From a virus, in the IMG/VR virus record IMGVR_UViG_3300036046_000008: DNA of 48,745 bases. One strand, written 5' to 3'. Below the pieces are notes generated by a model. It was not told the DNA's origin and made no database searches. It saw only the letters and a list, made by a program, of their open reading frames with translations. Positions 1 through 48,745 of this stretch are shown one piece after another; position 1 is the stretch's first letter, and each line of letters starts with the position of its first letter. A program made the translations under genes and the position numbers.

Positions 1-127
1 AGATTGACTACCGCCCCAAAAGCATCCACAGCGTATCTGGGGACTTCGGGGATCCTTCGAAAACCGGTCAACGAACCTCCTCGATCGGATGGAAATTAAC
101 GGTTTTGTAGGGTCGGGAAAAAGGGTC
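1..127. repeat. Window-end duplication: identical to 48619..48745 (terminal redundancy or circular-closure overlap)
   Basis: Direct reading: first 127 nt match last 127 nt exactly; repeat is truncated by the window edge so true length unknown. Confidence 0.9.
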
Positions 128-445
128 GGGAAAAACATCGATTTTCGACCCAAAAAGTTTTCTGGAGAACGTGTTTTTTTCTCTATTTTTTTTACTTTCC
201 AAAAAGTCTTAGAAAGGGGGTATATTTTTCCCGTTTTCCCGACCAAAATGTCCTAAATGTCCGATTTGTACACATTTTAGGCCCTCTTATTGACAATGAA
301 ACCCCCTGTTTTTGCACTAAAATTTTCAAATTTACCCTCTTTTTGGCCCTTTTTTGGCCAACATTTTTCCCGATTTCCCGACCAGTTTTCAAAAACGCTT
401 GGTATCTCATATTTTTCCCGACCCGAAATGTCCGTTTTGTCCTTT
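108..445. repeat. Non-coding AT-rich region with iteron-like repeats (GGGTCGGGAAAAA x2 direct; TTTTCCCGACC x3 inverted; AAATGTCC repeats)
   Basis: Seen in sequence at about 110-135, 228-252, 366-385, 413-442; no credible ORF; lies between last and first gene of the circularised map. Confidence 0.6.
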
Positions 446-508
446 TTTTAGCCTGGAAGATAAAACTAAAATGCCGTGTGGGCACCTTAGTTTTTTGGGG
501 GTGTGAGA

Positions 509-778
509 TCACTTCAGCTCTTCGTTAGCGATAATGATCTCCCATTTAAACTCGCTCATGAGTGTTTCTGCGTCTGGGGCATACTTCAATCCGTGAATGT
601 CAAGTTTGTCGTTGACTCGTCGGCCGGCGAGCTTGATCGCGGCAAGCTCTCGATAATGGTTCTCAAGAATCTCTTCGCGTGCAGCTCGTCCCGCCTGAAC
701 GGTCTTTGCAATCTTAACACCTGCAAGGGCGGAGGATGCCCCAACAACAATCACTCGGGCAAGATAATAGGGGTTCAT
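509..778 (-). CDS. hypothetical protein
   Basis: Track ORF 89 aa; ATG with GAAAGGACC RBS; conserved promoter element immediately upstream. Confidence 0.55.
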   Translation of the reverse strand: MNPYYLARVIVVGASSALAGVKIAKTVQAGRAAREEILENHYRELAAIKLAGRRVNDKLDIHGLKYAPDAETLMSEFKWEIIIANEELK

Positions 779-796
779 CTCGGTCCTTTCAAATAG

Positions 797-833
797 TAGG
801 GGGTCTCATTATATGCCCTGCAATTTTCGCGCG
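797..833 (-). promoter_or_regulatory. Conserved promoter-like element copy (TATAATGAGACCCCCTAC core)
   Basis: Minus strand reads CGCGCGAAAATTGCAGGGCATATAATGAGACCCCCTAC; abuts the tRNA 3' end and precedes gene 509..778. Confidence 0.6.
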
Positions 834-906
834 TGGGCCCCGTGGGACTCGAACCCACACCTTACGGATTAAAAGTCCGCTACTCTGCCAATTGAGCTAG
901 AGGCCC
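834..906 (-). tRNA. tRNA-Lys (anticodon UUU)
   Basis: Manual cloverleaf fold: 7-bp acceptor stem GGGCCTC/GGGGCCC, D-loop AATTGGCA, anticodon loop CTTTTAA, T-loop TTCGAGT, discriminator A; no encoded CCA. Confidence 0.85.
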
Positions 907-913
907 AAACCCC

Positions 914-2062
914 TTACAAATATGCCGAGCGACTAGACTCGTTGAAAGAACGCTTTCGCCGAAGCGCTTCGCGAATTGCCCGATCCAGAGGCGCCGCACT
1001 CATCAACGTGTAGTAATATAACTTCTCATGCTGTGAGTCAAGACGATCGATTCGTCCTTGCGCTTGCTTATACATGCGATACGAATAAGTAAGCGAATAA
1101 AAGCACATAGCGTTAGTCTCAGTGCAATTCCATCCTTCGGCCCCGGCCAGATACTGCACCAAATATACCCAGGAATCTGAGGTCGGGATGTCTTCATGAC
1201 GATGCCCGTTCCATTCCGCAACTGCTACATCTTCGGCAAGCTCCCGCAGGATCGCAAGCTCATAGTCAAAGTTGTAGAATATAACTAAACGGGGATGTTT
1301 TTCCAGCAAAGCCCTCACCGCAAGGAACCTTGTCTCGTCCGTATTCAAGACCTTTCTTGCTACGTAGAAGGTGTTGGAGATAGTCTCGATCGGTGCCTCT
1401 TTGAAGACGTCCCAACGATCCCGCCACACCTGAATATACTTCTCACGGTCGTATTGCACAGGTGTTTCAACGAACTCTCGGTCAAGATGCGATCGGTAAG
1501 TCATCCCCACAAGAATCTGCGCACGCAGCTTGTACAGTTTGGTAAGACCAACGTAGCGATCGACTTTAGGGAACTTGGTAAAAGTATTGTACACGGCATG
1601 TTGCCGGGTGAAATCCGTCTTGTTCTTGTAGAACCCATTTGCGATAAAGACCGGAACGTAATCCATCCATGTGTCGCCCGGCGTTGCCGACAACAAAATC
1701 CAAGGGTTGTCTTTGACGACCTTCAGAAACGCCTTGACCCAGGCCCCATACCCAACCAGTCGCTGTTCGTCCGCAATGAGAAATATACCCTCAGCATCCG
1801 TATATTTCGCCAAGTTCTGCCAACTGTCGACGGTCAACTCCGTTACTCCTACCAAAGCCGCCTCTCGTTCCCAGTCACCGCTGTCCCGCTTCTTCGCAGT
1901 GGTGATGACAAGCAGCTTACGGTCACTGTGGTTCCGCTGGTAATATACCAGAGCGGTCAACGTCTTGCCCGAACCCACAGGACCATACAGAATCTTGCCC
2001 GTCGACAACTTCGCGAGAGCCTCCTCCTGATGCGGATATAGCTTCACGTGTCCGAGGTCCAT
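914..2062 (-). CDS. ATP-dependent helicase (SF2-like)
   Basis: Track ORF 382 aa; Walker A GPVGSGKT, Walker B-like LIADEQ, helicase motif VI-like QGRIDR; start overlaps upstream gene by 19 nt. Confidence 0.6.
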   Translation of the reverse strand: MDLGHVKLYPHQEEALAKLSTGKILYGPVGSGKTLTALVYYQRNHSDRKLLVITTAKKRDSGDWEREAALVGVTELTVDSWQNLAKYTDAEGIFLIADEQRLVGYGAWVKAFLKVVKDNPWILLSATPGDTWMDYVPVFIANGFYKNKTDFTRQHAVYNTFTKFPKVDRYVGLTKLYKLRAQILVGMTYRSHLDREFVETPVQYDREKYIQVWRDRWDVFKEAPIETISNTFYVARKVLNTDETRFLAVRALLEKHPRLVIFYNFDYELAILRELAEDVAVAEWNGHRHEDIPTSDSWVYLVQYLAGAEGWNCTETNAMCFYSLTYSYRMYKQAQGRIDRLDSQHEKLYYYTLMSAAPLDRAIREALRRKRSFNESSRSAYL

Positions 2063-4657: not shown

Positions 4658-4690
4658 GTGGTCTCATTATAGACGATGTAAAATTCGCGA
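4658..4690 (-). promoter_or_regulatory. Conserved promoter-like element copy
   Basis: Minus strand TCGCGAATTTTACATCGTCTATAATGAGACCAC; adjacent perfect 8-bp hairpin at about 4638..4657; no ORF of 60 aa or more downstream. Confidence 0.5.
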
Positions 4691-4692
4691 GG

Positions 4693-4938
4693 CTAGCGCA
4701 TCTTTCTTACCGCCCGTCGAAACGCAACATACCGTTCCTCATGCTTTTCGCTCCACGTCCGTCGAACCGCAGACACGACTACCACGCCAACTCGGGTATA
4801 GCTTCGGGCAGCCCACTCGCAATTTTCCCATTCCGTCTGCCATGTCCGGCGCCATATCGGTTTTTCCCGTTGCACGCGGTAAATAGTAAGATCGGACAAG
4901 TCAACAAGATTACGCCAGAATCGTTTAACCCACATCAA
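4693..4938 (-). CDS. hypothetical protein
   Basis: Track ORF 81 aa; start overlaps upstream stop. Confidence 0.4.
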   Translation of the reverse strand: MMWVKRFWRNLVDLSDLTIYRVQREKPIWRRTWQTEWENCEWAARSYTRVGVVVVSAVRRTWSEKHEERYVAFRRAVRKMR

Positions 4939-6523: not shown

Positions 6524-9500
6524 TTAGCTAACGAACGCTTCGAACGAGCCGAAACGTTCAATGGTGTCTACGGCGTCTTCGACCAGAGCTTGATAGAACG
6601 ATTTATCGATGTTCTGCCATTCCGATGGACCCAATTCCTTAACGACGGCGGCCTCCTTCCAGAAATATCCCTTTGTCCCAGACAGCGCGTACTTGCGCCC
6701 GTCTTTGACTCGGTAAAGCGTACCGCCGCCTGTGCCTTCGCGGACCGGAACGAAGCTTCCAGACCGTCCGACAAAGTGCATACGCTCGTCGCCGAAATCG
6801 ATGTAGATGGCGCCATTGGTTACCGAACGGACTTCGCACAAGTCTTGGAGGTGGATCTCGTCATGCGTGAACAAAGTTCGATAGACATATGGGTGTTGGA
6901 ATTGAGCGCCGACAGCGTCCCATTTGTCGCCTTCTCGGGCGATGTAAACGGCGTCGTTGACAAGACAGAATTTCTCGTATGTCTTCTCGTGGTCGAACGT
7001 GTACCCGTATCGCTCGCCAAATTCGGTTACAAACTGAATAATATCGGGCGTGGCATTAGGGATCTTGACTGAGTCCGTCTTAATATGCACTACCGGGAAG
7101 CCTTGTTCCTGGATGGCATGCTTGAGATCAATCATGAACAAAGCGCCACGCTTCGCGACGATGTTGTCTTTATTTCGAGGATCGCGGAACACCGTATCAA
7201 ATTTGGCACTGGTTAGGCCATAGACAATATTGATGACGATCTTCAACGCATGAGACAAGTCTTTGGCGGACTGGGTATCAGCGTCTGAGATAAAAGAAGC
7301 TAATTTTCCATCTAGCATCTGCGCCGCAGCAGAATAATCGCCTTTCTTAATGGCGAGCCGCGCGTCGAGCAGATCGTTAAAGTTCTTTGTATAAGGCCCG
7401 AACAAATTTAGAAGGCGAATAGACGTCGGGTGCATCGAGGCAACGTCAAGAACCGCAACATTCTCGTACATCCCTGGTTCAGCGTATACGTACCCGCCTT
7501 CACTAGGATCCTCGCCACGGTAAGAGCTTTTGCCGCCCTCGAAAATATAACCCGGAAACAACTCGCTGAGATCTGTATAGACGAATGAGCCTTGAGGAGA
7601 GGGGTCTCCCTCAAATACGATTCGCGCCGTGTGCTTCTGCGTAGTGTCGTTGACGCTGAGCCCGCTGATCGAAGCGAGAATCTGTCTCGCGACAAAGTCC
7701 TGGGCCCTGGACTCCGCGACTTTCTCCGTTGCAACGACATCGTTGGCGCAATAGTCGGCAACTTCGATCCAACGCTCCTCTGGCACCGGCTCGTCCCACG
7801 GGTGGTCGAGCTCTTTGTGGACGATGCCGAGCTCGATCTGGAACTTCTTCAGTCCTTGCTTCTTGGACGAGTAGTCGTACACATCGGCGTAAGATAGCCC
7901 ATACGCCTCGCCGAAGGTGGCGTTGCGGTTCTTGTCCACAATCAAAGCTTGACTGAGTCTATACAAACGCTCATTGTCGTAACCCAAGAACGCAGCGTAC
8001 AAAATATGGTTGTCATAGCGTCTGTTGTTGAACCCCACGAGCTTTTGAGCAAGAAGAGGTTCGATGTCATCGGGCTTCGGATTGATCATCCGCACAACAG
8101 GGTGATCGCCCTCAAACTTCCAACACAACACGAACAGGTTAGGGTACACCTCAACGTCGAAATATACGAGCGCGTCGCCTTCTCCGGAGATAGAGACTGT
8201 ACGATCCTCCGACTTAAACTTCATCTCCCTGACAAGCCGCAGACATTCCAACGGTCGGTTCGTGCTGTTGTTGGCGAAAGCCACGATCGAGGACCGCAGA
8301 TCTGTGACATCATAGCTCAAGTCAGAAGAATATGCGTCATCCAAGACCTTCTTGATGAAGTCGATTGACGACTTCGTGTTAGGATGAATCTCCTTTCTCA
8401 AATTTCGAGCAATCATCTCTCGAAGCCCGCGCTCAGATTTGATCTGTTTGACATCGATCATCTTTCTCTCCTTCATAGGCAACCCGCTTGTGATTTGCGC
8501 AACTTCATGGTCGTTGCATCGCGACAGCCTACGGCGAAGAGACGAGTCCCCGAGCAAAGTTTTAATCTCAATGCCCGGAGAGTACTCGTTATCTAGTTCT
8601 TTGATGTCGCCGTTGTAAATATAATGCAGATGCAGCCCTTTCCCGCTCATACTCAACTCAGTATAGGTTGGCGGCCACGCACTAGCAGCTTCAAGATTCT
8701 TATCGAGGGACTTCTCTCCACTTTCATCGCGCAAATCGAAATCGATCACAATATGATTCTTAGGAATCTTGACGTAATGCACCAGCGAAGTGTCCAGATC
8801 GGTCAGGGTGGTCTTGACTAAGCCCCAACGCTTACTAGGCTTACCTGTTTCTGTGGCGTACTGAGCCGGCATGTCTGCCAAAATATCGTCAAGCAACGAT
8901 CGGCGTTGAGCCAGATTGATTGAGAACGATTTAGGCGACGACGGAGCGACCCCAGTCAACTTCTCCAGCTTGAAGTCTTTGAACAAGCTGTACACCTCCT
9001 GACCGTCGACCATCGTTCTCTCTACGAAATTCTCGTAGTAATTCATCATCTCGTTACGAAATATCTGCATCTGCATCGGTTTGTTGTTTGACTCGGTGCA
9101 GAATTCCTTATACAAAGCATAGGCCCTTTTAAGGGTAATCCCGTCCGGCGCTTTCAACTCGGGCAAATATGCTTCGACGAAGTTGTAGAACACGTTGGTT
9201 GAATACATCATCTTCGTGGGGCGGTAGTTGTCATAATAATTCTTGCCCATGCTTTGATACACTCGAAGACAGTGCGATGCAATAGCGCCGAGTTCAAATT
9301 CGATCCTCGACATCAACACTTGATAATGATCAAACGTGTGCAAATTTCCGGTTGGTTGGACATCGATCAGTCGCCGCAATAAACCAGACCGAGAGTCACT
9401 AATCTTGACGGGGTTGTTAGTGCCCATAAACAGAAACGTGTTGATGCGTACATTATACTGAGATTTATACTTCTCGTTGATCACCATATTCTCATGAGAG

Positions 9501-10225
9501 ACCAACGAATTCAACCTGGTGTTGTCCTCAATCCGGGACAAATCGCCATCGTGTTGGATTCCCACCAACGGGTTCTCTTTGAAGACCTCCAAGGCAAAAG
9601 AGGTCCCGTTGGACCCGAGCGCCTTCGCGTCAAAGACGTTCGTATAGCCGGAGAATAGACGCTCAATAATATGAAGGACTGTGGATTTACCGGTCTTCGC
9701 GGAGCCATAAAGCACAATAAACTTCTGAATGTCGACAGAGTCTCCCGCCACAACGGAGCCGATTGCCCACTCAATCTTAGCGAGCTCCTCCTCAGAATAT
9801 AGCTTTCCAACCAGTTCGTCCCATGCGTCGTGTGCACCATCCTCTAGGGCGTAGTCAAGACGATGGCTGATGTAGTCGGTCTTCTTGACTTTCGTATTGG
9901 AGAACGCCAGGAACTGGTTCAACTGATGATAATTGTTCTCGTTGTTCCGCACATAGCGCAAAAATGCGTCATGCGACCCGGTAGAGTGCTCTTCCATCCA
10001 GCGAATATAAGGCTGATCAAACTCCGCGGCGACTCGGCGGAGCTCTGCATCGACAAGCTCAACCACCCTGTAAATATCCGTCGACCAGAGCCCCGCTTCC
10101 TCGTCCCAGATGGCATAAAACTTCCCGCCGCGCGTCATCAAGTCTCGCGACTTACGACTGAGGAATTCAGGGTAGACTTCGGTCTTCTTTCCGTTCTTTC
10201 GAACCTTTGCCTTGAAGAAGTCCAC
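6524..10225 (-). CDS. Multidomain replicase: P-loop (SF3-helicase-like) + primase-polymerase (AEP-like) + family B DNA polymerase with 3'-5' exonuclease
   Basis: 1233 aa; Walker A GSAKTGKST and LFMGTNNP; AEP-like VIDFDLRD and SGKGLHLHY; exo motifs FDVEV, GFNNRRYD, YCAND; pol motifs DVASMHPT, KIVINIVYG, KTDS; GTG start with GAAGGAGGGAG RBS. Confidence 0.7.
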   Translation of the reverse strand: MDFFKAKVRKNGKKTEVYPEFLSRKSRDLMTRGGKFYAIWDEEAGLWSTDIYRVVELVDAELRRVAAEFDQPYIRWMEEHSTGSHDAFLRYVRNNENNYHQLNQFLAFSNTKVKKTDYISHRLDYALEDGAHDAWDELVGKLYSEEELAKIEWAIGSVVAGDSVDIQKFIVLYGSAKTGKSTVLHIIERLFSGYTNVFDAKALGSNGTSFALEVFKENPLVGIQHDGDLSRIEDNTRLNSLVSHENMVINEKYKSQYNVRINTFLFMGTNNPVKISDSRSGLLRRLIDVQPTGNLHTFDHYQVLMSRIEFELGAIASHCLRVYQSMGKNYYDNYRPTKMMYSTNVFYNFVEAYLPELKAPDGITLKRAYALYKEFCTESNNKPMQMQIFRNEMMNYYENFVERTMVDGQEVYSLFKDFKLEKLTGVAPSSPKSFSINLAQRRSLLDDILADMPAQYATETGKPSKRWGLVKTTLTDLDTSLVHYVKIPKNHIVIDFDLRDESGEKSLDKNLEAASAWPPTYTELSMSGKGLHLHYIYNGDIKELDNEYSPGIEIKTLLGDSSLRRRLSRCNDHEVAQITSGLPMKERKMIDVKQIKSERGLREMIARNLRKEIHPNTKSSIDFIKKVLDDAYSSDLSYDVTDLRSSIVAFANNSTNRPLECLRLVREMKFKSEDRTVSISGEGDALVYFDVEVYPNLFVLCWKFEGDHPVVRMINPKPDDIEPLLAQKLVGFNNRRYDNHILYAAFLGYDNERLYRLSQALIVDKNRNATFGEAYGLSYADVYDYSSKKQGLKKFQIELGIVHKELDHPWDEPVPEERWIEVADYCANDVVATEKVAESRAQDFVARQILASISGLSVNDTTQKHTARIVFEGDPSPQGSFVYTDLSELFPGYIFEGGKSSYRGEDPSEGGYVYAEPGMYENVAVLDVASMHPTSIRLLNLFGPYTKNFNDLLDARLAIKKGDYSAAAQMLDGKLASFISDADTQSAKDLSHALKIVINIVYGLTSAKFDTVFRDPRNKDNIVAKRGALFMIDLKHAIQEQGFPVVHIKTDSVKIPNATPDIIQFVTEFGERYGYTFDHEKTYEKFCLVNDAVYIAREGDKWDAVGAQFQHPYVYRTLFTHDEIHLQDLCEVRSVTNGAIYIDFGDERMHFVGRSGSFVPVREGTGGGTLYRVKDGRKYALSGTKGYFWKEAAVVKELGPSEWQNIDKSFYQALVEDAVDTIERFGSFEAFVS

Positions 10226-10774: not shown

Positions 10775-11550
10775 CCATCATCACTCCGAAACTTTCGGAC
10801 TTTCCGGAAGGCGCGTGCTGCATCGTGCTGCAGACTATCTTCCTCGTCATACCCCAGAACGTTCTTCTCCCACGAGCCGTAGTCGATAGTGATCAGAACG
10901 TCTAGGCGAAGCTGGTCGTTACGAATATAGACACAAACATTGTCGTCCGAATACTCGTCGAAACGACTGAGATCGGCGTATTCCCCAATTGTGCGCTCAG
11001 GCAACGAGACGACGGTATCTGTCTCATCGACTAGAGCTCCGTCTTCTTCGTAATAGGTCCACTCGACCTGAGCATTGCTGGGTTCGTTGTAGCGAAACTC
11101 TTCTTCTGTGATCAAATATGGAGTGCGGCCCGGCTCTGGGCGTTCGTCCGATACCGGATGATAAGACGCTTCTTGCAGTTTTTCGAGTGGGATCGGATCG
11201 TCCTTATTGGGGCCGTCGGCGTTAGAACGCTCCGGCACTGTATAGAGTCGGGCGTAATCTGTATAGACTGCGTAATCGGTGTCGACCTCTCCCAGCGGTG
11301 CCGGCTTGGCGTTCTCCTCGCCGTTTGGGGCCGGCACGACCTCGTATTCCTCTCGCTTATACAGAGTTTTGTAATATAGCTGGGCTCGTTTCACCTCCTT
11401 TTGCAGAATATCCTCAGAGCGCTCTGCCATAGCTTGCCGCACGAGAATTCCGCCCACGGTTGCTCCGACGCCGAGCCCCAACGCGTAGAAGCCAAACGGG
11501 GACGTTACCCTATGAGCAAGCATCGCCCGAATCAGGTTCATAGAATTCAC
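10771..11550 (-). CDS. hypothetical membrane-anchored protein
   Basis: 259 aa; N-terminal hydrophobic helix then acidic domain. Confidence 0.55.
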   Translation of the reverse strand: MNSMNLIRAMLAHRVTSPFGFYALGLGVGATVGGILVRQAMAERSEDILQKEVKRAQLYYKTLYKREEYEVVPAPNGEENAKPAPLGEVDTDYAVYTDYARLYTVPERSNADGPNKDDPIPLEKLQEASYHPVSDERPEPGRTPYLITEEEFRYNEPSNAQVEWTYYEEDGALVDETDTVVSLPERTIGEYADLSRFDEYSDDNVCVYIRNDQLRLDVLITIDYGSWEKNVLGYDEEDSLQHDAARAFRKVRKFRSDDG

Positions 11551-12500
11551 ACCTCTCGAAAGTTAACTCGGTCGACAATGACGCCATCCACGTTAAAATC
11601 GAGAAACACGGACAGCTCGCGCCCGTTTACAAAATCCCGCAAACGCGGATCATCTCCGTGCAGGAACCCGAAGTCAATATAGTTGTCTCCGGTTCCGTCC
11701 TCGTTGATGCGCCAGCCAACAACCTGCCCAGCTTTGGACCGTTCCATTCCGAGCATGTCGTAGACCTCGTTCAGGAACACATGTCCCTTTGCCTTAAGCA
11801 AATCGTTCGCATAGTTCTGCTGAGCGCGCAGGAACAGATAGTTGGCGTGCGGCACGTCCTGCCAATGCTGGTTGTACTCGTCAAAGAAACGAGCATACGG
11901 CGAATATGCGGTCTCTCCGATACGCTTACGCTCAACTACCTCTTTCGAACCTGTGTCTTTGTTCTCGATCGCCACGCGCTCAGAATATGCGTCGTAACGC
12001 AGGTCACGCTCAACTTCCTCACCGAATTCCTGCCGAACCCGATCGCGATACAGCTTGAACGCCCGGTCCAGTCCATTGTATGCCACCGTCAGGGCAGCCA
12101 CACGAGTGTTGAGGATGAAGTGCGCACGAGCAAACGCGGCGACGGTCAGGGTGCCCACCAAGATTGTGGGGGCGTACAGCCGACCCACGTCAACAAAGGT
12201 CCGCGTGTAAATATAGATGCGATCCCGCAGTGCATCTTCCTCCGTATAGTGATGCTTGGCCACCATCTCGGAGTCTTGCTCGACAGTGCGCACGTTCTGC
12301 AGGTCCTGCTGCGTCTTCTGCAGAACCTCATCGACGCGGAGAGTCGCCCGCGACGCCAGAACGGTGGTTGCCGCAAATCCTACCACGCCCGCACCGAACA
12401 GAATATGAGGCGAGTTAACCTTGCCCGCCAAGACCAGCCGCCCCATCTTTTGGGAGACGGCTGGTGACATGGCTTTTCTAATAAGTTGCAACTTGTTCAT
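11547..12500 (-). CDS. membrane protein, paralog of 15329..16117
   Basis: Track ORF trimmed to ATG at 12500 with GAAAGGA RBS; shares N-terminal TM pattern and C-terminal blocks with 15329..16117. Confidence 0.55.
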   Translation of the reverse strand: MNKLQLIRKAMSPAVSQKMGRLVLAGKVNSPHILFGAGVVGFAATTVLASRATLRVDEVLQKTQQDLQNVRTVEQDSEMVAKHHYTEEDALRDRIYIYTRTFVDVGRLYAPTILVGTLTVAAFARAHFILNTRVAALTVAYNGLDRAFKLYRDRVRQEFGEEVERDLRYDAYSERVAIENKDTGSKEVVERKRIGETAYSPYARFFDEYNQHWQDVPHANYLFLRAQQNYANDLLKAKGHVFLNEVYDMLGMERSKAGQVVGWRINEDGTGDNYIDFGFLHGDDPRLRDFVNGRELSVFLDFNVDGVIVDRVNFREV

Positions 12501-12510
12501 CTTAGTCCTT

Positions 12511-13197
12511 TCAGTCCAGTGGTTCGGGTTGCGAGAGATCGAGCAAATATCCGGACGAGATCCGCCGGACTTTGGCGCCACTTAGATCGTACCAACCCCA
12601 ATTGGCGTCGGTGTACGCCGGAGTCAGATCCAGCAGGTTGTAGAGATCTGAGACGGACACGTGCTGATAGCGATCGAGCAGATCATACATCCGATCCAGG
12701 ACTTCGTGCGCCTCGGCCCGTGTTGTTAGAACCACCTCTTCAAAATTGTGGCTAGTACGGGCTCTCCGACTCAACTCTCGGCGAGGCTGTCTGTCGTCCG
12801 GAAAAGGCGGACGCGTTCGGCTACCACGCCCGGCGTACTGCTCGTACTGAGTGTAAACTCGCGGTCGGCCACCACGCCCAGACCGAACTCTCGGATTGTA
12901 GTAGTGACTGTCCCCGAATAAGAGCCGCTCAATTCCGCCGCTCACCGCATCAGTGATCATGTCTTTCGCAGCGGGAATAAGCACGTCAAGAACCACATAC
13001 TGTCGAACGTTCTGCGCATCGGCCCCTAGGAACGTCTCACGGACTCGACTGCCAAGAGACCGTTTTCTACGAACCACACGGTTGACAACGACCTTCTCGA
13101 TCTTCTTGTCTTCAGCCGGCGGGGCGGGAGGAGGCGCCGGCTGCTGGAACGCTGTGCGCGTGTTTGGAGGAAACTCTTCCATAATATAACCTTCCAT
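12511..13197 (-). CDS. hypothetical protein
   Basis: Track ORF 228 aa; Pro-rich N-terminus. Confidence 0.5.
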   Translation of the reverse strand: MEGYIMEEFPPNTRTAFQQPAPPPAPPAEDKKIEKVVVNRVVRRKRSLGSRVRETFLGADAQNVRQYVVLDVLIPAAKDMITDAVSGGIERLLFGDSHYYNPRVRSGRGGRPRVYTQYEQYAGRGSRTRPPFPDDRQPRRELSRRARTSHNFEEVVLTTRAEAHEVLDRMYDLLDRYQHVSVSDLYNLLDLTPAYTDANWGWYDLSGAKVRRISSGYLLDLSQPEPLD

Positions 13198-13516: not shown

Positions 13517-13533
13517 GGGGATGCTTCCTTTCT

Positions 13534-13570
13534 GTAGGGGGTCTCATTATACGGCATGCAATTTTCGCGA
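13534..13570 (-). promoter_or_regulatory. Conserved promoter-like element copy (closest to consensus)
   Basis: Minus strand TCGCGAAAATTGCATGCCGTATAATGAGACCCCCTAC then GAAAGGAAG then ATG. Confidence 0.6.
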
Positions 13571-13649
13571 GAGACGGGCGCATGTTCAACTCGTGGCGTG
13601 GGCGGTAGCTACGCCAACAGGTTCTTCGGCTGTCGTTTAAAACCAGCAT

Positions 13650-14871: not shown

Positions 14872-14912
14872 GAGGGGGTTTGGTCTCACTATAGAGGATG
14901 TAATTTTCGCGA
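14872..14912 (-). promoter_or_regulatory. Conserved promoter-like element copy (variant TATAGT)
   Basis: Minus strand TCGCGAAAATTACATCCTCTATAGTGAGACCAAACCCCCTC. Confidence 0.5.
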
Positions 14913-15290
14913 TTACTCGGTCTCGCAGAGCTCGAGAATATACGCTCCCGCCTCGTCAACGACGTCGCCAATTGTCAGATCCTCCGGCAACTTTGCCAGA
15001 AGGTCGTTGTCTGGCGCGAGCTCGGATACCTCACTAACCAAGGTGTCGCGATCCGGCAACTCATCACCCGCAAAGGTGAACAACATGGCGCCCATCTGCT
15101 CTGACGTGTCCACGCCAAAGAAAGCCAGCGCCTGGCAGAATTCCTCGGGGTCCTGCCCACCCTCGTAGAACACCTCATCCAGCTCGGCCCGCATTTCTTC
15201 TTGCCAAGTGGGGCCGCTATCCGCGCAGCCCGCCAAGGTCAAGATGCCGACCGTGGTAATTGCCGCGTACTTGCCAATCTTCTTCCACAT
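14913..15290 (-). CDS. putative lipoprotein
   Basis: 125 aa; signal peptide with lipobox LTLAGC; acidic mature part. Confidence 0.6.
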   Translation of the reverse strand: MWKKIGKYAAITTVGILTLAGCADSGPTWQEEMRAELDEVFYEGGQDPEEFCQALAFFGVDTSEQMGAMLFTFAGDELPDRDTLVSEVSELAPDNDLLAKLPEDLTIGDVVDEAGAYILELCETE

Positions 15291-15304: not shown

Positions 15305-15335
15305 AAATATAGGGGGTTTAAATGTTGTCTAACTC
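15305..15335 (-). promoter_or_regulatory. Degenerate copy of promoter-like element
   Basis: Minus strand CATTTAAACCCCCTATATTTAAAGGAGCA before ATG of 14913..15290. Confidence 0.3.
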
Positions 15336-16117
15336 ACACGGTTGTAGTGTCGTGTCGGACTCACCATAAAATCCATGACAATGCACGGCCGATCGTCGTC
15401 TGCCATGGTGGTAGAGAACCGCAACTCCAAGAGCAGGTCTGAATTCCAACCGATGTCGTCAGAGAACTTCGTTAGATCTAGACCAAGTTGATTGTACAGA
15501 TCGCTCAGAGACGCGTAGAAGTCGTTGATGATCTTCTTGTTAATGTAGTTTTCTGCTCTCCTCATTGCCTCCATATCACTGTAGAAATATCGCCCTGCGT
15601 AGAGGTCATAGCACAGCACTGTGCCTACACCTTGAATAATGGGTTGATTGCGAACAGGGTTATCACGTACCCGATCTTGCGCAATCTCGTCTCTCAGTGC
15701 CCGTTCTTTACTTGAGCCCAGCTGCTCGGTAACCTTGTGCTTATACTCGGTGAACGCGCGCTCTGTCAGAGAATATGCAGCGACCATGGCGGCTGTCCGA
15801 CGATTACTGACATATACGGCGGCGATCAGGCACGCGCAAGAGACTACACCACTTGCTACCGCGGGAATATAAAGACGCCACGTCAACGAGACGATGTCTT
15901 CTTGAGCCAACGGTTCGGCAACGACATAGTTCTGAGCTGCGTCGTCTGCCCGCCGGTCTTTCTCCTCCTCGAGAATATAGGCGGCTCGAAAACCGGCTTG
16001 TGACGCAAGCACCGTCGTTGTAACAACCCCGGCAAGCCCTACAGTTGCAAGTAATGTAGGCGCATTGTCGACGAGAAACTTTTGCGACATCCGCATCACA
16101 TCAGTCAACATCGTCAC
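15329..16117 (-). CDS. membrane protein, paralog of 11547..12500 (start uncertain)
   Basis: Track ORF 262 aa; shared TM and C-terminal blocks with 11547..12500. Confidence 0.55.
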   Translation of the reverse strand: MTMLTDVMRMSQKFLVDNAPTLLATVGLAGVVTTTVLASQAGFRAAYILEEEKDRRADDAAQNYVVAEPLAQEDIVSLTWRLYIPAVASGVVSCACLIAAVYVSNRRTAAMVAAYSLTERAFTEYKHKVTEQLGSSKERALRDEIAQDRVRDNPVRNQPIIQGVGTVLCYDLYAGRYFYSDMEAMRRAENYINKKIINDFYASLSDLYNQLGLDLTKFSDDIGWNSDLLLELRFSTTMADDDRPCIVMDFMVSPTRHYNRVS

Positions 16118-16643: not shown

Positions 16644-16659
16644 TTCAATCTTCCTTTCG

Positions 16660-16696
16660 GTAGGGGGTCTCATTATACAGCATGCGATTCTCGCGA
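16660..16696 (-). promoter_or_regulatory. Conserved promoter-like element copy
   Basis: Minus strand TCGCGAGAATCGCATGCTGTATAATGAGACCCCCTAC then CGAAAGGAAG. Confidence 0.6.
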
Positions 16697-16709
16697 TGCC
16701 ATCGGCTCC

Positions 16710-16904: not shown

Positions 16905-16920
16905 GGTCTTCTCCTTAAGT

Positions 16921-16955
16921 AGTGGGTCTCATTATATGGCATGCAATTTTCGCGA
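16921..16955 (-). promoter_or_regulatory. Conserved promoter-like element copy
   Basis: Minus strand TCGCGAAAATTGCATGCCATATAATGAGACCCACT. Confidence 0.55.
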
Positions 16956-16961
16956 CCTAAC

Positions 16962-16995
16962 CAAGACTAAGACTCCGTGTGGGAGTCTTGTCTTA
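16962..16995 (-). terminator. Hairpin (conserved-loop family)
   Basis: Plus AAGACTCC-GTGTGG-GAGTCTT. Confidence 0.4.
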
Positions 16996-17121: not shown

Positions 17122-17138
17122 GGTCTTTCCTTTCATTA

Positions 17139-17175
17139 GTAGGGGGTCTCATTATACTACGTGTTATTTCCGCGA
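17139..17175 (-). promoter_or_regulatory. Conserved promoter-like element copy
   Basis: Minus strand TCGCGGAAATAACACGTAGTATAATGAGACCCCCTAC. Confidence 0.55.
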
Positions 17176-17580: not shown

Positions 17581-17593
17581 GGTGCTCCTTTCG

Positions 17594-17630
17594 GTAGAGG
17601 GTGTCATTATATGACGTGTATCAATCGCGG
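17594..17630 (-). promoter_or_regulatory. Conserved promoter-like element copy (variant)
   Basis: Minus strand CCGCGATTGATACACGTCATATAATGACACCCTCTAC then GAAAGGAGCACC ATG. Confidence 0.5.
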
Positions 17631-17824
17631 TCAGACCGCTCTACCGAAAATATAACGCGTTTCTTATGCTCCATGTCTAACGGATCGACATTAAGCTCCA
17701 AACTGAACAACTTTTTACCATCATGTTCAGTGATCAAAATAACACCGTCTGTTTTGCGCCGATGATAATACAAATATAACAGATTCAGACCGAGAAGCAC
17801 TAGAATTACTAGATACATTTCCAC
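17621..17824 (-). CDS. small membrane protein
   Basis: 67 aa; N-terminal TM helix; GTG start after TAGGAG. Confidence 0.45.
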   Translation of the reverse strand: MEMYLVILVLLGLNLLYLYYHRRKTDGVILITEHDGKKLFSLELNVDPLDMEHKKRVIFSVERSDRD

Positions 17825-27669: not shown

Positions 27670-29625
27670 TCAGCTTCCGGTCGGGCGGAGGTAGCTCCAC
27701 TGAGTACGACTGCCCGGCGCCACGTAGTAGCCATCGCCAGCCACGGCATAGACCGTCAGAACCTCCCCAGCGTCAAGAACCTGAGCGCCCGTGAGCTCGT
27801 CACCGTTGGAGTCCTGGTAAACCACGCCGGTCTGCGTCGGAATCGTCACCGTGTAGGTAGAGCTGTCCCACGTCGGAGCGTTTGGCTTCACCTCGTCATC
27901 GGCTGCTCCGGAGTTGCGCACAACCAGAGCCGAATGCGGCTTGTTCAGAGCGCCACACAGCCGCGCCTCGATGAGATACTTGTACTGGTTGTAATCAATA
28001 TCAAAGTCATCGAAGAGACTCGTCTGGCCGCCTCGATCGGCGCCAATAACATAGTCCGTAAGATTGACGACAACGCCAACCAGCGACGGATCAGACTCGA
28101 ACGCCTCCACCTCGACAATGTTAGCGACGCGCATCGCGGTAGCCGCCTCAGCAACGGTCTTGTAAAGGCGCTTCCCGTCGCCGTCTTTAACCAGCATGAT
28201 CTCGGAAAGGACAGTCTCAGAGGTGTAGAATGTTGGCGTACCACTGCCCTTATAGAGACGACGGGCCCGAACCAAGGCGTCAACCAGCTCCTCGTACGAG
28301 GAGTCAGCGTCACCAAGGTTGACCGTCACAGGCACTGCGAAGAACGGGTGGTCTTTCGCAATGGGACGAATATGAGTCTCGAGAATCTTGTCCTCGTCGC
28401 CCGGGTCACGCCCGTCACCAATAAAGATGGCGCGGGCAATCTCCTCCTCGAGCATCAGACGCATCTCGCCCTTCATGAACGCGACAACGTCCAGGTCCAC
28501 AATATCAATCACGTCATCGCGATCGAGCTTCTGCTTCTTATAGACGGTTTGGGGAGTGGTGACGCGGCGCGAGAGCGAGAAAAACTCTTCCTTCTTCATC
28601 GTCCCCTTGACGTAGCCCTTCGCACGAGCCTCGTCAAACTTCAGATCGGCGCTCACGGACTTAATCCGAGAGAAGGGACTCTTCCGAACCCCAGACATCA
28701 CGCCCGAAACCCACTCGGTCCGACGGGAATCAAGCTGAATCTCGCCGACCATCTTGGCGTCTGGGAACAACACGTCGAGATTCTCCACACCGTGCTGCAG
28801 AGCGTAGTTCTCGAACGCGGTACGAAGCGACCCGACGCGCTGAGCGTCTGCCACAATTGCCTGAAGATCACTGTGCGAAAGAACTGGGCCCGACGAGGGC
28901 GTGGAGTCCTGCTCGAAAACGTTACGGGTCATTTCGGTGTCACCTTCCATGTGAGAATGTGTAAGCTGGTCTTGCTCTTCGCTGTCTGCCGACTGGGCCA
29001 CATTGTCGGACTCTTCGGCTGCCTGCTCAAGCGCCGCCCCCACCATATAATGCAGGACATCCTTCTGCTCTTGAGTCATTGAGTCATAAACATCCTGAAT
29101 AGTGAGCTCCTTCTCGGAGCCACTCTCGGTTTTCTCCACGTGTGCAACCTCCGGGTTCAAAGACTCGTGTTCGAGAAGTAGTCCAGTGTAGATGACGGCC
29201 TCGTCTTCCAAATGTTCAATCTCACCGTCCGCGTGGGCAACGGCTACATAATCGATAAGGGCTCCGGGATTGGCGCCGGACAGGACCAGACTGACCTCAG
29301 TAATGGCGCCGTGCAAAACCTGCTTCGCTCGCTCGACTAGGCGATTTGCATAGATAGACATGCGGGTAATATCACCGTGCTGCACCAAAGTCTTAGCATT
29401 CAAACCAGATGGGCTTGAATTAAAGAAACCATACGCGTACATGCCATCGTCACGAGCTTCGAGAATTGCATGTCCCAAAACATTCTCAGGGGACTTATGG
29501 CCATGCTGCCAAACTAGCGGCACGCGATGCCCATCCATGTGCTTGAAAGCATCAGGCGTAATGACTCGGCCGTCGGAGCACTTGAGACCCGCCTTCGTGG
29601 CGTAACCGCTGAAATCAGCTTCCAT
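27670..29625 (-). CDS. prohead protease (HK97 family, U35-like) fused to HK97-fold major capsid protein
   Basis: About 651 aa; N-terminal VPLVWQHGH...LGHAIL protease-like block, acidic linker, capsid-like C-terminal half; ATG with GGAAGGAGA RBS. Confidence 0.6.
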   Translation of the reverse strand: MEADFSGYATKAGLKCSDGRVITPDAFKHMDGHRVPLVWQHGHKSPENVLGHAILEARDDGMYAYGFFNSSPSGLNAKTLVQHGDITRMSIYANRLVERAKQVLHGAITEVSLVLSGANPGALIDYVAVAHADGEIEHLEDEAVIYTGLLLEHESLNPEVAHVEKTESGSEKELTIQDVYDSMTQEQKDVLHYMVGAALEQAAEESDNVAQSADSEEQDQLTHSHMEGDTEMTRNVFEQDSTPSSGPVLSHSDLQAIVADAQRVGSLRTAFENYALQHGVENLDVLFPDAKMVGEIQLDSRRTEWVSGVMSGVRKSPFSRIKSVSADLKFDEARAKGYVKGTMKKEEFFSLSRRVTTPQTVYKKQKLDRDDVIDIVDLDVVAFMKGEMRLMLEEEIARAIFIGDGRDPGDEDKILETHIRPIAKDHPFFAVPVTVNLGDADSSYEELVDALVRARRLYKGSGTPTFYTSETVLSEIMLVKDGDGKRLYKTVAEAATAMRVANIVEVEAFESDPSLVGVVVNLTDYVIGADRGGQTSLFDDFDIDYNQYKYLIEARLCGALNKPHSALVVRNSGAADDEVKPNAPTWDSSTYTVTIPTQTGVVYQDSNGDELTGAQVLDAGEVLTVYAVAGDGYYVAPGSRTQWSYLRPTGS

Positions 29626-29702
29626 TTTGACTGTCTCCTTCCTGGTTAGTGTCAACGGCCTGGAGTGCCGTTTCGGATTTGATAAGACTCATTAGAACCC
29701 CT

Positions 29703-32489: not shown

Positions 32490-33195
32490 TACCTGACGAA
32501 GCCGACCAGGTGACACTAGCAGCGGGAATTGTTCCGGCAGAGGAAATAGGCGCCTGCGCGGCAACCGCATGGGCGCTCGATCCAGACGACGCGGCAAGAG
32601 CCTGATTTATTAAGGTGTGACCGGCTGGCAGAGTAACGGACGTCGACTTATTGTCTTTGCGAACCCAAAGTCTAACCAACAGCCCTTCGCCGTCGGCCGT
32701 GACCGCTGGGGCGGGCGCTACCGTGTTCGTATCTGGCTGGTTTTGGGTAGATCGAACAAACGACGTCAGGTTACGCACAGCCACGCAAACGTGGCTACAT
32801 TTTCGACTAGCAGAAAGAGACCAAGACGGCATCTCAAGGCCGTCAAAATATGTTGCTACATAAAGCGCTCTTTGGGTGGTCCCCTGGTTTGAAAGCAAAT
32901 TATCCTCAGTCCAATCCGAATGGTCGGACGTTACGGTCACACCACCCGAAGAATCAGATACTGACATCCCGCACACCAACCAGTCTCCATCCTGCAGACC
33001 GGAAGGAAGATCGGGGGTATAAGATGTTAAAAAGTTTGTGGCAGACGCAGACGAGCCTACAACGATAGGCTCGGTAGGAGGCTCCGGCTCTTCGCCGCTC
33101 TCATAAATAAGATTAGTCCCCACATAAGCCTTTAGAAGAGGAGAAGTTCCCGCGTACATTGCGGTCACACTCGAACTACCAGCACGAACAGTCAT
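32458..33195 (-). CDS. hypothetical Ser/Thr-rich protein
   Basis: 245 aa; ATGA overlap with terminase stop. Confidence 0.5.
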   Translation of the reverse strand: MTVRAGSSSVTAMYAGTSPLLKAYVGTNLIYESGEEPEPPTEPIVVGSSASATNFLTSYTPDLPSGLQDGDWLVCGMSVSDSSGGVTVTSDHSDWTEDNLLSNQGTTQRALYVATYFDGLEMPSWSLSASRKCSHVCVAVRNLTSFVRSTQNQPDTNTVAPAPAVTADGEGLLVRLWVRKDNKSTSVTLPAGHTLINQALAASSGSSAHAVAAQAPISSAGTIPAASVTWSASSGNGTGWSIAIA

Positions 33196-34937
33196 TCGAA
33201 CAACCCCTTATGAACTTTGTAAGCTACGTAGGCATCCAGCAAGGCCGAGAAATTATCGATTTTTGCATCTTTTCGCTTCTTGTAGAGCTTGCGATTGCCG
33301 TTCGTGTCTTCCAATGTTACCGCATTGCCCATCGCAAACGACATCAGTAACTCATCAAATATAAGCAATCGCTCATCCGCAAGATTTCGTAACTCGCCAA
33401 GCGGAACTGATTCGGTACGGACGCCCTGCGGAACTTTCTCCACACCAAACGGACCATTTTCTGAGATCCATCGATCAATGAACTCTTTCGCATTATACGG
33501 GTCATACCCTACCGCCCGAATATCGTAGTCTTGAGCGGCAATAAACTCATCGAGGTCTTCATAAACTTCCATCAGATCAAGAACCGCTCCATCTAAAACA
33601 TGGAGACTACCCTCAGAAATAAACTCGTCGTACTTCAGACGCATTGCCGCTGGAAGCTTCATCATTGTTAAAGAGGTAATATAACTACGAGTCTTGACGC
33701 CCCACGAACCATCCCGTAACGGGAATAAAAACGTAAAAGCACAGAAATCGTCGCCTTGGGAAAGATCGACGCCCATACTACAGGCCATCTTCCAGAAAGT
33801 CCGCGACGAATGCGGCAACGTCTGTTCGTAAGTGAAGAAGTAAGTGAACCCCTCCATGGGAATACCAAAACGCTTCGCTAAAATATCGTTTCGAGCAGCG
33901 GGCACCTTTTCAGCTCGCTCTACATCCAAATGATACGTGTCATAGCTTACCGTGATGCCAAGATTGGGGTTAGCTTTTACCCAAAGCTCCGGGTGATTTA
34001 CCTCGTCGAGAGTATCAAGTTTATAATGCCAAATCGAAACATGAGGCGCATAATACTCCCCTTTGAGAATTGATGCAAGTTCAAGCTTAACAGTGTCGCC
34101 CGAGCCGTTCCGCACCGTTCCTTCAGAACTAATCGCAACGATAACATAATCGTCAATTTTAGACGCACCTTGCTCCAGCGCCCCGATAATATCTTCGCGC
34201 AAATCGCCGGACAACCACTCGTCAATTGTATTAACTTTCGATCGAAGCCCTTGAACTTTATCAATGGTCATCGGGCGAATCTCGAGAAGCGAACCCGTCA
34301 AGAAATTCTCGATCCCGCGTTTGGTTGCGACGAGTTTCTGTCTGAGAGCACGATTACCAGTAGTGTTCTGAAGCGAGCCCTCGGTCAAAAACTTGAACAA
34401 AGGGCCACGGGCCCGAACAATGGACGTACGGATAGGAGACAAGACCTCTTCGGCTTGTTTCATCGTAAGCGCAGTTGTCACTTGATGCGTAGTGGTTGGG
34501 TCCACATTTAAAAAATAACTTTGAATGACGGAGGCGTACATAGACTTGGCTGCGCCCCGCGCCACGATCAAATACTGTTTATTTGTCAAGCGTTTCTTGA
34601 TAACCTTATGAACATAGTGACCGCCGCGCCCGTCTTCGTTAGGCTGATAGACGGTGCGATCCACAAAATAATACCATCCTAGTAACTGTTCAACCCAAAC
34701 TTTAAAAGAAAGCATAAGCCACAAATTACGCCCATCAGTCAGAGTCAGTTCATTCTCGCAATAACGAATAAAGCCCTCGACCGGCCCGTCGTCGTAATAA
34801 ATATTAGGGTTTGCAATAAGCTCGTCAATCCGGTTCATCTCAAGCGAAATTTCCCGATTCACAGGGATCTCGCCTCGGAGCACCGCGGATCTAAATTCAT
34901 CATAATATACGGGAACCGCAGTATTAGACAAGCTCAT
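33192..34937 (-). CDS. terminase large subunit
   Basis: 581 aa; N-terminal ATPase-like region (LIVARGAAKS) and C-terminal nuclease-like region; AGGTGGTGA RBS. Confidence 0.75.
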   Translation of the reverse strand: MSLSNTAVPVYYDEFRSAVLRGEIPVNREISLEMNRIDELIANPNIYYDDGPVEGFIRYCENELTLTDGRNLWLMLSFKVWVEQLLGWYYFVDRTVYQPNEDGRGGHYVHKVIKKRLTNKQYLIVARGAAKSMYASVIQSYFLNVDPTTTHQVTTALTMKQAEEVLSPIRTSIVRARGPLFKFLTEGSLQNTTGNRALRQKLVATKRGIENFLTGSLLEIRPMTIDKVQGLRSKVNTIDEWLSGDLREDIIGALEQGASKIDDYVIVAISSEGTVRNGSGDTVKLELASILKGEYYAPHVSIWHYKLDTLDEVNHPELWVKANPNLGITVSYDTYHLDVERAEKVPAARNDILAKRFGIPMEGFTYFFTYEQTLPHSSRTFWKMACSMGVDLSQGDDFCAFTFLFPLRDGSWGVKTRSYITSLTMMKLPAAMRLKYDEFISEGSLHVLDGAVLDLMEVYEDLDEFIAAQDYDIRAVGYDPYNAKEFIDRWISENGPFGVEKVPQGVRTESVPLGELRNLADERLLIFDELLMSFAMGNAVTLEDTNGNRKLYKKRKDAKIDNFSALLDAYVAYKVHKGLFE

Positions 34938-38710: not shown

Positions 38711-38713
38711 GAG

Positions 38714-39220: not shown

Positions 39221-39240
39221 CAAACGCTCCTTACCCGTAG

Positions 39241-42245: not shown

Positions 42246-42653
42246 CTACCAAAGCTTAGTATCATTAGGACGGCGGGGAACATAGGGTTTCGGGAGTAAA
42301 TTCCGATCGCCGTAATGGATTGCGTTATGAGTATCATGAGTCGTAGTGATCAAGAACTCCGGATCCAAAACCTCGTCCCGTCCGTGAACTAAATCTTCGA
42401 CAGTGACTGGGTTCATATGATGAATGTAAGCACGCTCATAAATCTCATACCCGACGACACCAAGATCACAACCCAGATCTCTTGCAATGACGTGGGTCCG
42501 AAGTGCTCGCCATTGAGCCGACATGTAGAAGCGTTGATTCAACCAACGATCGTGTCCGAACGTAGACAACCCAACAGATCCACGCAGAACCAAATAGTCA
42601 AATCTATCTTCAAACTGACTCATCTGAATCAGCTCGGTATAACGTCTAACCAT
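42246..42653 (-). CDS. HNH endonuclease
   Basis: IHHMNP ... HDTHNAIHYG HNH-like motif; track ORF 42246..42710 trimmed to ATG with GAGG RBS. Confidence 0.55.
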   Translation of the reverse strand: MVRRYTELIQMSQFEDRFDYLVLRGSVGLSTFGHDRWLNQRFYMSAQWRALRTHVIARDLGCDLGVVGYEIYERAYIHHMNPVTVEDLVHGRDEVLDPEFLITTTHDTHNAIHYGDRNLLPKPYVPRRPNDTKLW

Positions 42654-42975
42654 TGTATGCCTCGTCAGTGTGACCGGAATACGACCGCATAGCGTCGAGA
42701 ACGCTTTCATAGAGCTCTTCTACTCGCTTGGCCGACTCCAACAACTCCGTCTTAGAATCTAGCAACTTGTTCTCACGGGCCAGCTTTTCCTGTTCCAAGG
42801 CTTCACGAGTGGACCCAAGACGCAGATAGTGAGTAATCACTTGCGCGGTGGCAGTACCATCTCGGAGCTGCTTCTCAGCGAGATTAGTAGCTAACAACAC
42901 GAGGCGCTGCTCTTGTTCTTCAGGAGTCCGTGCCGGCGGGCGCCGCGGTTCCGACTCCTTGCGGCGTTGCGCCAT
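42646..42975 (-). CDS. hypothetical protein (charged, coiled-coil)
   Basis: Track ORF 109 aa. Confidence 0.45.
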   Translation of the reverse strand: MAQRRKESEPRRPPARTPEEQEQRLVLLATNLAEKQLRDGTATAQVITHYLRLGSTREALEQEKLARENKLLDSKTELLESAKRVEELYESVLDAMRSYSGHTDEAYNG

Positions 42976-44046: not shown

Positions 44047-44267
44047 GGAGCCCCTCCTTAAAAGTTTTGAGGCACTTCGACAGGGGTTTTACACACTTTC
44101 TACGACCAAAAATCAACTTTTAAGGACCGTCAAGTCTGCGAAGAAAGCTTTTGGCATAGTTTGGCCCCACTTTTACCCCCTCAAACGACCCGCCGGAGAA
44201 ATTTTAGGGACGCGGCGATATGGAGGGGGTCTCGGTTTTGGCGGGCCCTCCCCCCTATTTTAATTTT

Positions 44268-44531
44268 TTAATTCGTTGTTTGCGACGAGGAGTAAACTTT
44301 TCGGTATTTACCTAAAAGGTTGTAGGTCACAATCTCGTCAATAGCTTGCTGTACTGCTTCTTTCTGTTGTTCTTCTGAAAGTTCGAAGGAAACTCTCGCG
44401 ACTCGAGCCAGCAGGCTAAGAGTGTGGTACCCCGATCGACGATCAAAAGCTTCCCACTCTTTGAAGTGGGTGAAAGGATTCCACGGATTGTCAGTAGTAG
44501 TTAACATCGCGTAAGTGTTATCACTCATCAC
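44268..44531 (-). CDS. hypothetical protein
   Basis: Track ORF 87 aa; GTG start, TAGGAGAA RBS. Confidence 0.55.
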   Translation of the reverse strand: MMSDNTYAMLTTTDNPWNPFTHFKEWEAFDRRSGYHTLSLLARVARVSFELSEEQQKEAVQQAIDEIVTYNLLGKYRKVYSSSQTTN

Positions 44532-48152: not shown

Positions 48153-48689
48153 TTATATGCTTTTTTGGTCAGATCGCGCGAAGAACGCAAAACGGTAAGA
48201 AGTTGGGAACGCCGGCTCGCCTTCTTGAATAGACGCAAAAAGATCATGAAGGAGGATCCCGTAGAACATGCACGTGATCCAAGCGTTCCCCACAACCTCG
48301 TTCGTGTCCAAGTTGATCACTTGTTTACGTCGCACCCACGAATATGGCCAGAACGTATATAGACCAAGACGATGACCTTGATGGTGGTACTTCATCGCGA
48401 ACCATCGAGGGCGCCAAGACAAATTATCGACATGCGAGTTCGATAGGTCGTAATCGTGATGTATGACACTATCAAAGTATTCGGACGGCGGGGGATCTAA
48501 GAAAGCGCGTGCCACAAGAAACGCAACCGGGCAAATGCGTCGCTCACCGTTGACATACAAACCCACATAGTAACGACCCTGTTGGTTTGAGCAAGGACGG
48601 AGCAGTCGATCTGTGTCGAGATTGACTACCGCCCCAAAAGCATCCACAGCGTATCTGGGGACTTCGGGGATCCTTCGAAAACCGGTCAA
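48153..48689 (-). CDS. HNH homing endonuclease (NUMOD4-like N-terminus)
   Basis: 178 aa; IPEVPRYAVDAFGAVVN and HHDYDLSNSHVDNL; TTG start after GAGGAGG RBS; 5' end lies inside the terminal duplication. Confidence 0.6.
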   Translation of the reverse strand: MTGFRRIPEVPRYAVDAFGAVVNLDTDRLLRPCSNQQGRYYVGLYVNGERRICPVAFLVARAFLDPPPSEYFDSVIHHDYDLSNSHVDNLSWRPRWFAMKYHHQGHRLGLYTFWPYSWVRRKQVINLDTNEVVGNAWITCMFYGILLHDLFASIQEGEPAFPTSYRFAFFARSDQKSI

Positions 48690-48745
48690 CGAACCTCCTC
48701 GATCGGATGGAAATTAACGGTTTTGTAGGGTCGGGAAAAAGGGTC

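Follow-up and report, generated by a model that had tools for sequence, protein, structure and literature searches.

The question raised by this locus is what the two identical ends of the window, the whole stretch of 48,745 nucleotides analysed here, stand for. Direct sequence comparison showed that positions 1-127 and 48619-48745 are exactly the same (100% identity). A prefix of the window equals a suffix at k = 127 only and at no other length, and this 127-mer is the sole long exact repeat of the window, the next repeat families being of at most 47 nt and mostly imperfect. Chance can be excluded as the origin of the identity (4^-127). The original prediction had described the ends as identical over at least 127 nt; the exact match was borne out, but the overlap is of exactly 127 nt and not a minimum, because the two copies sit flush with both edges of the window. 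It was also correct that the repeat contains the RBS and the first 23 or so codons of an HNH gene. On the minus strand GAGGAGG is followed by TTCG and then by the TTG start at 48689 of a 178-aa ORF, 71 nt of which (23.7 codons) lie inside the repeat. The end identity is almost certainly a leftover of the assembler from a circular path; almost certainly it is not a real biological feature and the finding is an ordinary one. Taking all the evidence together, the best explanation, in which we have high confidence, is a de Bruijn-graph artefact on a phage that packages from cos. The features on which this reading draws are collected in Table 1.

Table 1. Positions of the repeat copies, the predicted cos site and the genes discussed (window coordinates).
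Feature	Position	Strand	Basis or content
Left copy of the 127-nt terminal overlap (assembler k-mer overlap, almost certainly)	1..127		Exact identity to 48619-48745
Non-coding gap upstream of HNH operon, continuous with the repeat	128..508		Iteron-like GGTCGGGAAAA copies, both orientations
89-aa ORF	509..778	-	Between tRNA-Lys and non-coding gap, downstream of promoter-like cassette
tRNA-Lys (UUU)	833..906	-	ARAGORN
DNA helicase, RosaAsantewaa gp50 ortholog	914..2062	-	phrog_62, 8e-60; synteny
Cassette copies	786-840, 2360-2468, 4660-4698, 13524-13578, 14882-14920, 16650-16704, 16909-16963, 17129-17175, 17584-17638	-	Repeat search
Primase/polymerase	6524-10225	-	Family scans
Protease-capsid fusion	27670-29655	-	Family scans
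Portal	30285-31577	-	Family scans
Terminase large subunit (TerL)	33192..34937	-	phrog_9, 4e-104; Pfam TerL_nuclease/TerL_ATPase
HNH endonuclease, RosaAsantewaa gp2 ortholog, near cos	42246..42710	-	56% identity, E=8e-57; phrog_4321, 2e-62
109-aa ORF, RosaAsantewaa gp1 ortholog (first gene after left cos end)	42646..42975	-	57% identity, E=2e-33; phrog_4259
Predicted cos region, probable true genome ends	44160..44267	-	nhmmer profile match; gap-free alignment to joined ends of four isolates
Predicted 9-nt 3' cohesive overhang, 5'-CGCCGCGTC-3'	44209..44217	-	Homology; may be 1-2 nt off
87-aa ORF, RosaAsantewaa gp55 ortholog	44268..44531	-	59% identity, E=3e-33; phrog_4303
RNA-polymerase-like/HTH protein, 893 aa	44540..47221	-	phrog_4291, E=0
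HNH-like (homing-endonuclease type) ORF, 178 aa, RosaAsantewaa gp51 ortholog	48153..48689	-	phrog_959/59, identity to gp51, synteny with L001
Right copy of the 127-nt terminal overlap	48619..48745		RBS, ~23.7 codons from the start of the HNH-like ORF and 56 nt upstream

The length of the repeat is that of an assembler parameter. The JGI metagenome workflow uses metaSPAdes with k = 33,55,77,99,127 (bioRxiv 10.1101/2020.09.30.320929), and the end overlaps of metaSPAdes contigs are equal to maxK, as described for COBRA. From the number 127 alone, we infer that metaSPAdes with k = 127 was the assembler. The phage DNA in the sample would form a closed cycle in the de Bruijn graph, which a metaSPAdes-type assembler with a largest k of 127 would put out as a linear contig whose last k bases repeat the first k. 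The point at which the cycle is broken would be arbitrary. In the window the boundary of the repeat cuts the conserved HNH-like ORF at codon ~24. After removal of one 127-nt copy the non-redundant genome is of 48,618 bp, and its closure was seen in other assemblies as well. Exactly the same HNH-like protein is encoded in a 5124-nt Logan contig of SRR8857719 and in one of 1491 nt of SRR7091384. These contigs (L089 and L090), which come from sequencing runs independent of the window assembly, span the junction of the circularised window at 100% identity and contain the 127-mer once only. Contigs that span the junction do not by themselves exclude a direct terminal repeat (DTR), because the concatemers of a DTR phage would also give them. 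When the two repeat-boundary sequences were searched for exactly in viral and metagenome contig collections, no match was obtained. It was also observed that L089 shares 30 nt with L092, another Logan contig of SRR8857719, at window 44613-44642 inside the RNAP-like gene. Logan assemblies presumably use k = 31; if so, this overlap fits a k-1 end overlap and would be a further assembler-made one without biological meaning.

The minus strand carries all credible genes of the window. GC skew, negative throughout, gives no indication of the termini. No useful nucleotide match to cultured phages came out of a Megablast search with the whole window, and relatives were identified at the protein level. 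TerL showed 74-76% identity over 100% of its length to that of Streptomyces cluster BI phages like RosaAsantewaa, Kardashian and Rima; the best 30 records listed, all within this range of identity, were from Streptomyces phages, and several of them belong to cluster BI with published cos ends. In BI, Arthrobacter AU and some Gordonia phages, the large gene lying furthest to the right encodes a protein with 55-58% identity to the RNAP-like protein. Judging from these protein sequences, the phage is, like its relatives in Streptomyces cluster BI and Arthrobacter cluster AU, a siphovirus, and its host is probably an actinobacterium. Two paralog pairs were noticed, one of DUF6353 proteins in the early region (11547-12581 and 15329-16117, minus strand) and one of DUF7211-containing proteins (31617-32597 and 34948-35358, minus strand) which flank the terminase region. 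There is also a perfect 18-nt tandem repeat, CTCACCTTGAGGCCCCTG, present four times at 38801-38872, where the minus-strand ORFs 38632-38904 and 38714-39262 overlap; it adjoins the tail-fibre genes.

The 893-aa RNAP-like protein belongs to PHROG 4291, which is labelled 'RNA-dependent RNA polymerase', its match to Pfam RdRP (PF05183) is weak, and there is an HTH at the C terminus. This may be a two-barrel RNA polymerase of the YonO type. In all the relatives (BI, AU and Gordonia phages) the final large gene ahead of cos codes for a homolog, mostly called 'HTH DNA-binding protein' in GenBank. Another observation was a conserved minus-strand cassette of 40-47 nt, TCGCGAAAATTGCATGCCG-TATAATGAGACCCCCTAC-N(1-3)-GAAAGGAAG, with a start codon within ~10 nt after it. 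There are about 10 copies, every one of them in the non-structural half of the genome, and one similar copy exists in RosaAsantewaa at 22592. The cassette looks like a phage-specific promoter with its leader, and the phage's own RNAP-like protein might be reading it.

The place at which the window has been opened can be put on the map of these relatives. In RosaAsantewaa the right part of the genome runs helicase gp50, HNH gp51, VRR-Nuc gp52, exonuclease gp53, RNAP-like gp54, gp55 and the right end, and the left part runs from the left end through gp1 and HNH gp2 on to TerL gp7. The circularised window, read on the minus strand, has the helicase, the tRNA, the 89-aa ORF, the junction and the HNH-like ORF, in agreement with RosaAsantewaa order, and after the HNH-like ORF come an endonuclease, an exonuclease, the RNAP-like gene and the 87-aa ORF. 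The order being that of the relatives, the window ends fall at a point internal to the genomes of the relatives. The helicase, for which IMG/VR relatives show 50-59% identity, is the final conserved gene ahead of the junction. The helicase-HNH arrangement is contiguous in IMG/VR relatives also, with the helicase far from the contig ends (for example in L013). Accordingly, the termini of the relatives, both RosaAsantewaa and many IMG/VR contigs, do not map to the locus of the window junction.

The 178-aa ORF at the junction matches PHROG HNH endonuclease families (phrog_959, 3e-14) and has 37% identity (E=1e-30) to gp51 of Streptomyces phage RosaAsantewaa, an annotated HNH endonuclease; a Pfam scan of this ORF gave no match at E<0.01. 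It is one of two ORFs of NUMOD4/HNH_3 type (homing-endonuclease-like), the other being 2044-2355 on the same strand, and both are distinct from the near-cos HNH endonuclease at 42246-42653. On the other side of the junction, the 89-aa ORF is gene-called also in the Logan contig L089, and it has no PHROG match. In the circularised genome the gap after this ORF is of ~440 nt and the 127-nt repeat lies partly inside it. The motif GGTCGGGAAAA has five copies within 111-423, plus the duplicate of the first copy at 48729, and in the whole window 7 matches were found against 1.19 expected. These iteron-like copies, at 108-137, 225-245, 363-384 and 410-424, are three in one orientation and two inverted, and the gap which carries them precedes the HNH/nuclease/RNAP operon. 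Similar CGGAAAAA / TTTTTCCG copies are present in the equivalent gap of the relatives L002 and L003. The region may be an operator or an origin.

If the window ends are not the ends of the virion DNA, these have to be looked for elsewhere. Streptomyces cluster BI phages have 9-nt 3' overhangs, CGCCGCCCT or CGCCCGCCT (PMC6256688), and the overhang of Arthrobacter AU phages is CGCCGGCCT (PMC9753647, bioRxiv 10.1101/2020.01.10.891226); the common form of the published 9-nt 3' cos overhang in BI/AU siphoviruses is CGCCNNNCT. The joined right and left ends of RosaAsantewaa, Scap1, Kardashian and Circum were aligned to the minus strand of the window. All four aligned gap-free just downstream of the 87-aa ORF, in the arrangement ...GGGGGGAGGGCCCGCCAAAACCGAGACCCCCTCCATAT / CGCCGCGTC / CCTAAAATTTCTCCGGCGGG..., in which CGCCGCGTC stands against the CGCCCGCCT, CGCCGCCCT and CGCCGGCCT of the isolate record ends. 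An nhmmer profile made from the cos regions of 15 relatives, with the window left out, had a single significant match in the window, on the minus strand at 44263-44181, with E=1.8e-11 as against E~1 for the runner-up. A profile of right-end halves only (22 contig ends) placed its top match at the right position with a marginal E=0.083, and it was the addition of the left side that made the match decisive. A literal search of the window for CGCCSSCCT returned matches at chance level only, because the overhang variant of the window differs in the last bases.

The genes around this site are also those of the relatives. According to its genome record, gp55 is the last gene before the right cos end in RosaAsantewaa, and the 87-aa ORF is its ortholog; an exact-protein look-up of this ORF gave no match. 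On the far side, the homology of the near-cos HNH endonuclease starts at an internal Met, residue 20, so that the homologous part is 42246-42653. Thus a shared TerL lineage, a conserved cos at the syntenic position and an HNH endonuclease near cos and terminase were all found, as for a cos-type phage. Going by this homology, the phage most likely packages from cos with a 9-nt 3' overhang at ~44.21 kb, about 4.4 kb from the window ends. TerL of the BI/AU lineage would cut cos, with the RosaAsantewaa gp2-like HNH endonuclease encoded close by, and the cut at 44217-44209 (minus strand), which is a prediction for this phage, would leave 9-nt 3' overhangs of the sequence CGCCGCGTC. The circle could then be closed through joined cos ends, be it in replicating circles, concatemers or annealed ends.

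The contig ends of environmental relatives bear on the same point. The count covered 58 related IMG/VR contigs whose end falls downstream of the helicase, at a distance of no more than 6 kb. It was found that 22 of them stop, to the nucleotide, directly 5' of the overhang at ...C-run..(A/T)T (L004, L006, L017, L018, L020, L022, L023, L027, L033, L037, L049, L051, L053, L056, L059, L062, L064, L066, L067, L073, L075 and L081). Such ends would be the expected outcome if library preparation removes 3' overhangs. Two of the 58 are isolate-derived records and include the overhang, and the remaining 34 are metagenomic ends scattered fairly evenly from 0 to 5.6 kb past the helicase. Only two ends are within 321 nt of the helicase, L002 at 321 nt and L003 at 223 nt. 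These are the closest IMG/VR relatives, and the gap between helicase and HNH was considered as a hotspot of contig ends on their account; this was rejected and the two ends were treated as ordinary fragmentation, because the non-cos ends are fairly evenly spread over 0-5.6 kb. No terminal repeat was found in the L002 contig. Other related contigs read through cos, and the Logan contigs of this very phage do so at 100% identity; among the contigs of this exact phage none was found to end at cos. The Logan read-through means that joined-cos DNA was present in the samples, and it explains how the assembly could close into a circle.

With these data the other readings of the repeat can be weighed. 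Short DTRs of about 100-800 bp are a property of T7-like phages, T7 itself having one of 160 bp. The original prediction had allowed for a genuine repeat of this kind, with T7/T5-style replication and packaging rather than cos or headful. The virion DNA would then be linear with the 127 bp at each end, generated by T7-like staggered nicking and strand-displacement synthesis. A comparable length, a position partly in a long non-coding gap with iteron-like repeats, and junction-spanning contigs that are compatible with concatemers would all go with it, but the length is exactly the SPAdes maxK, one boundary falls inside a conserved ORF and the equivalent locus is internal in the relatives. Moreover, TerL shares 74-76% identity with its counterparts in cos phages whose overhangs are 3' and of 9 nt, a conserved counterpart of their cos site lies at ~44.2 kb in the window, and the ends of related contigs cluster at cos with no enrichment at the window junction, which is the internal helicase|HNH junction of the relatives. 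A T7/T5-style DTR is very unlikely, and this branch of the prediction is contradicted. Equally slight is the probability that the cos ends of the relatives have been replaced by a true 127-bp DTR that starts inside the HNH-like gene, the k-mer match being a coincidence. Were it a true DTR, this lineage would have changed its mode of end generation while keeping a TerL with 76% identity to the cos-phage enzyme.

The branch which stood is the assembly overlap of a circular assembly, the length being the metaSPAdes maximum k of 127, the repeat starting inside a gene and the independent assemblies having a single copy. Its wording of a circular or circularly permuted genome was not quite right, as the DNA in the virion is most likely a linear molecule whose cohesive ends are fixed. 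An artefactual overlap could also go together with headful (pac) packaging, in which the virions would be circularly permuted and terminally redundant, with no fixed ends. Headful phages typically give circular assemblies, as was obtained here. This combination is nevertheless improbable in view of the defined 3' cohesive ends of the nearest TerL relatives, the unique significant cos homolog at the syntenic position, the ortholog of their cos-adjacent HNH endonuclease and the metagenomic contigs of relatives that end at one precise nucleotide. Another reading takes the 127-nt repeats as direct repeats of attL/attR type flanking an integrated or excised temperate element, and there is indeed a tRNA-Lys gene at a distance of ~700 nt. 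The repeat and this gene do not overlap, there is no flanking host DNA in the window, the independent contigs show a closed junction and RosaAsantewaa, the relative examined in full, has no annotated integrase. The att-repeat or prophage reading was dropped when no integrase was found among the larger ORFs scanned (PHROG, Pfam), and its probability is close to nil.

The value of recognising the assembler-made overlap for what it is lies mainly in quality control. When the two ends of a contig share an exact 127-nt repeat, this is routinely counted as a 'DTR' in support of completeness. Such repeats do indicate a closed assembly, and they say nothing on the packaging mechanism. In this record one copy should be removed, leaving 48,618 bp, and for a meaningful start the sequence should be re-oriented by rotation to the predicted cos at ~44.21 kb. 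A further dimension is added by the many related environmental contigs that share one precise end nucleotide, the one preceding the overhang on its 5' side. Metagenome assemblies of this phage group record physical cos termini, and therefore metagenomic contig ends can reveal real cos termini in this group of actinophages.

Compared with known systems, the end identity resembles the k-mer overlap of SPAdes/metaSPAdes (maxK = 127) in its exactness, in its flush copies, in its length and in a break point that takes no account of genes; the circle left after removing one copy is confirmed by independent assemblies, as expected. No measurable difference from such an overlap was seen, the assembler here being known by inference. 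The likeness to the short DTR of T7 (160 bp) is a formal one, a short exact repeat at both ends of the record, and there are differences in TerL lineage, synteny, cos conservation, the intragenic boundary and a length that equals an assembler parameter. Compared with BI (Scapunavirus, Bingvirus) and AU (Mudcatvirus) phages, the predicted overhang CGCCGCGTC of the window ends in TC whereas that of the relatives ends in CT, and the triplet before it is TAT in place of CAT. Between cos and the gp1 homolog the window carries additional ORFs of 149 aa and 200 aa, which take up ~1.2 kb, and its HNH gp2 and TerL are separated by ~6 kb of connector, tail-fibre and lysis genes. On the other hand, the predicted cos of the window has in common with that of BI/AU phages its flanks, which consist of a G-run, a TCTCGCAAAA-like segment and a C-run, as well as the arrangement ..AT / 9 nt / CCTAAAAWT..CCCCGG. 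It has the same position, after the RNAP-like gene and one small ORF, and TerL, gp1 and HNH gp2 are homologous between the window and these phages.
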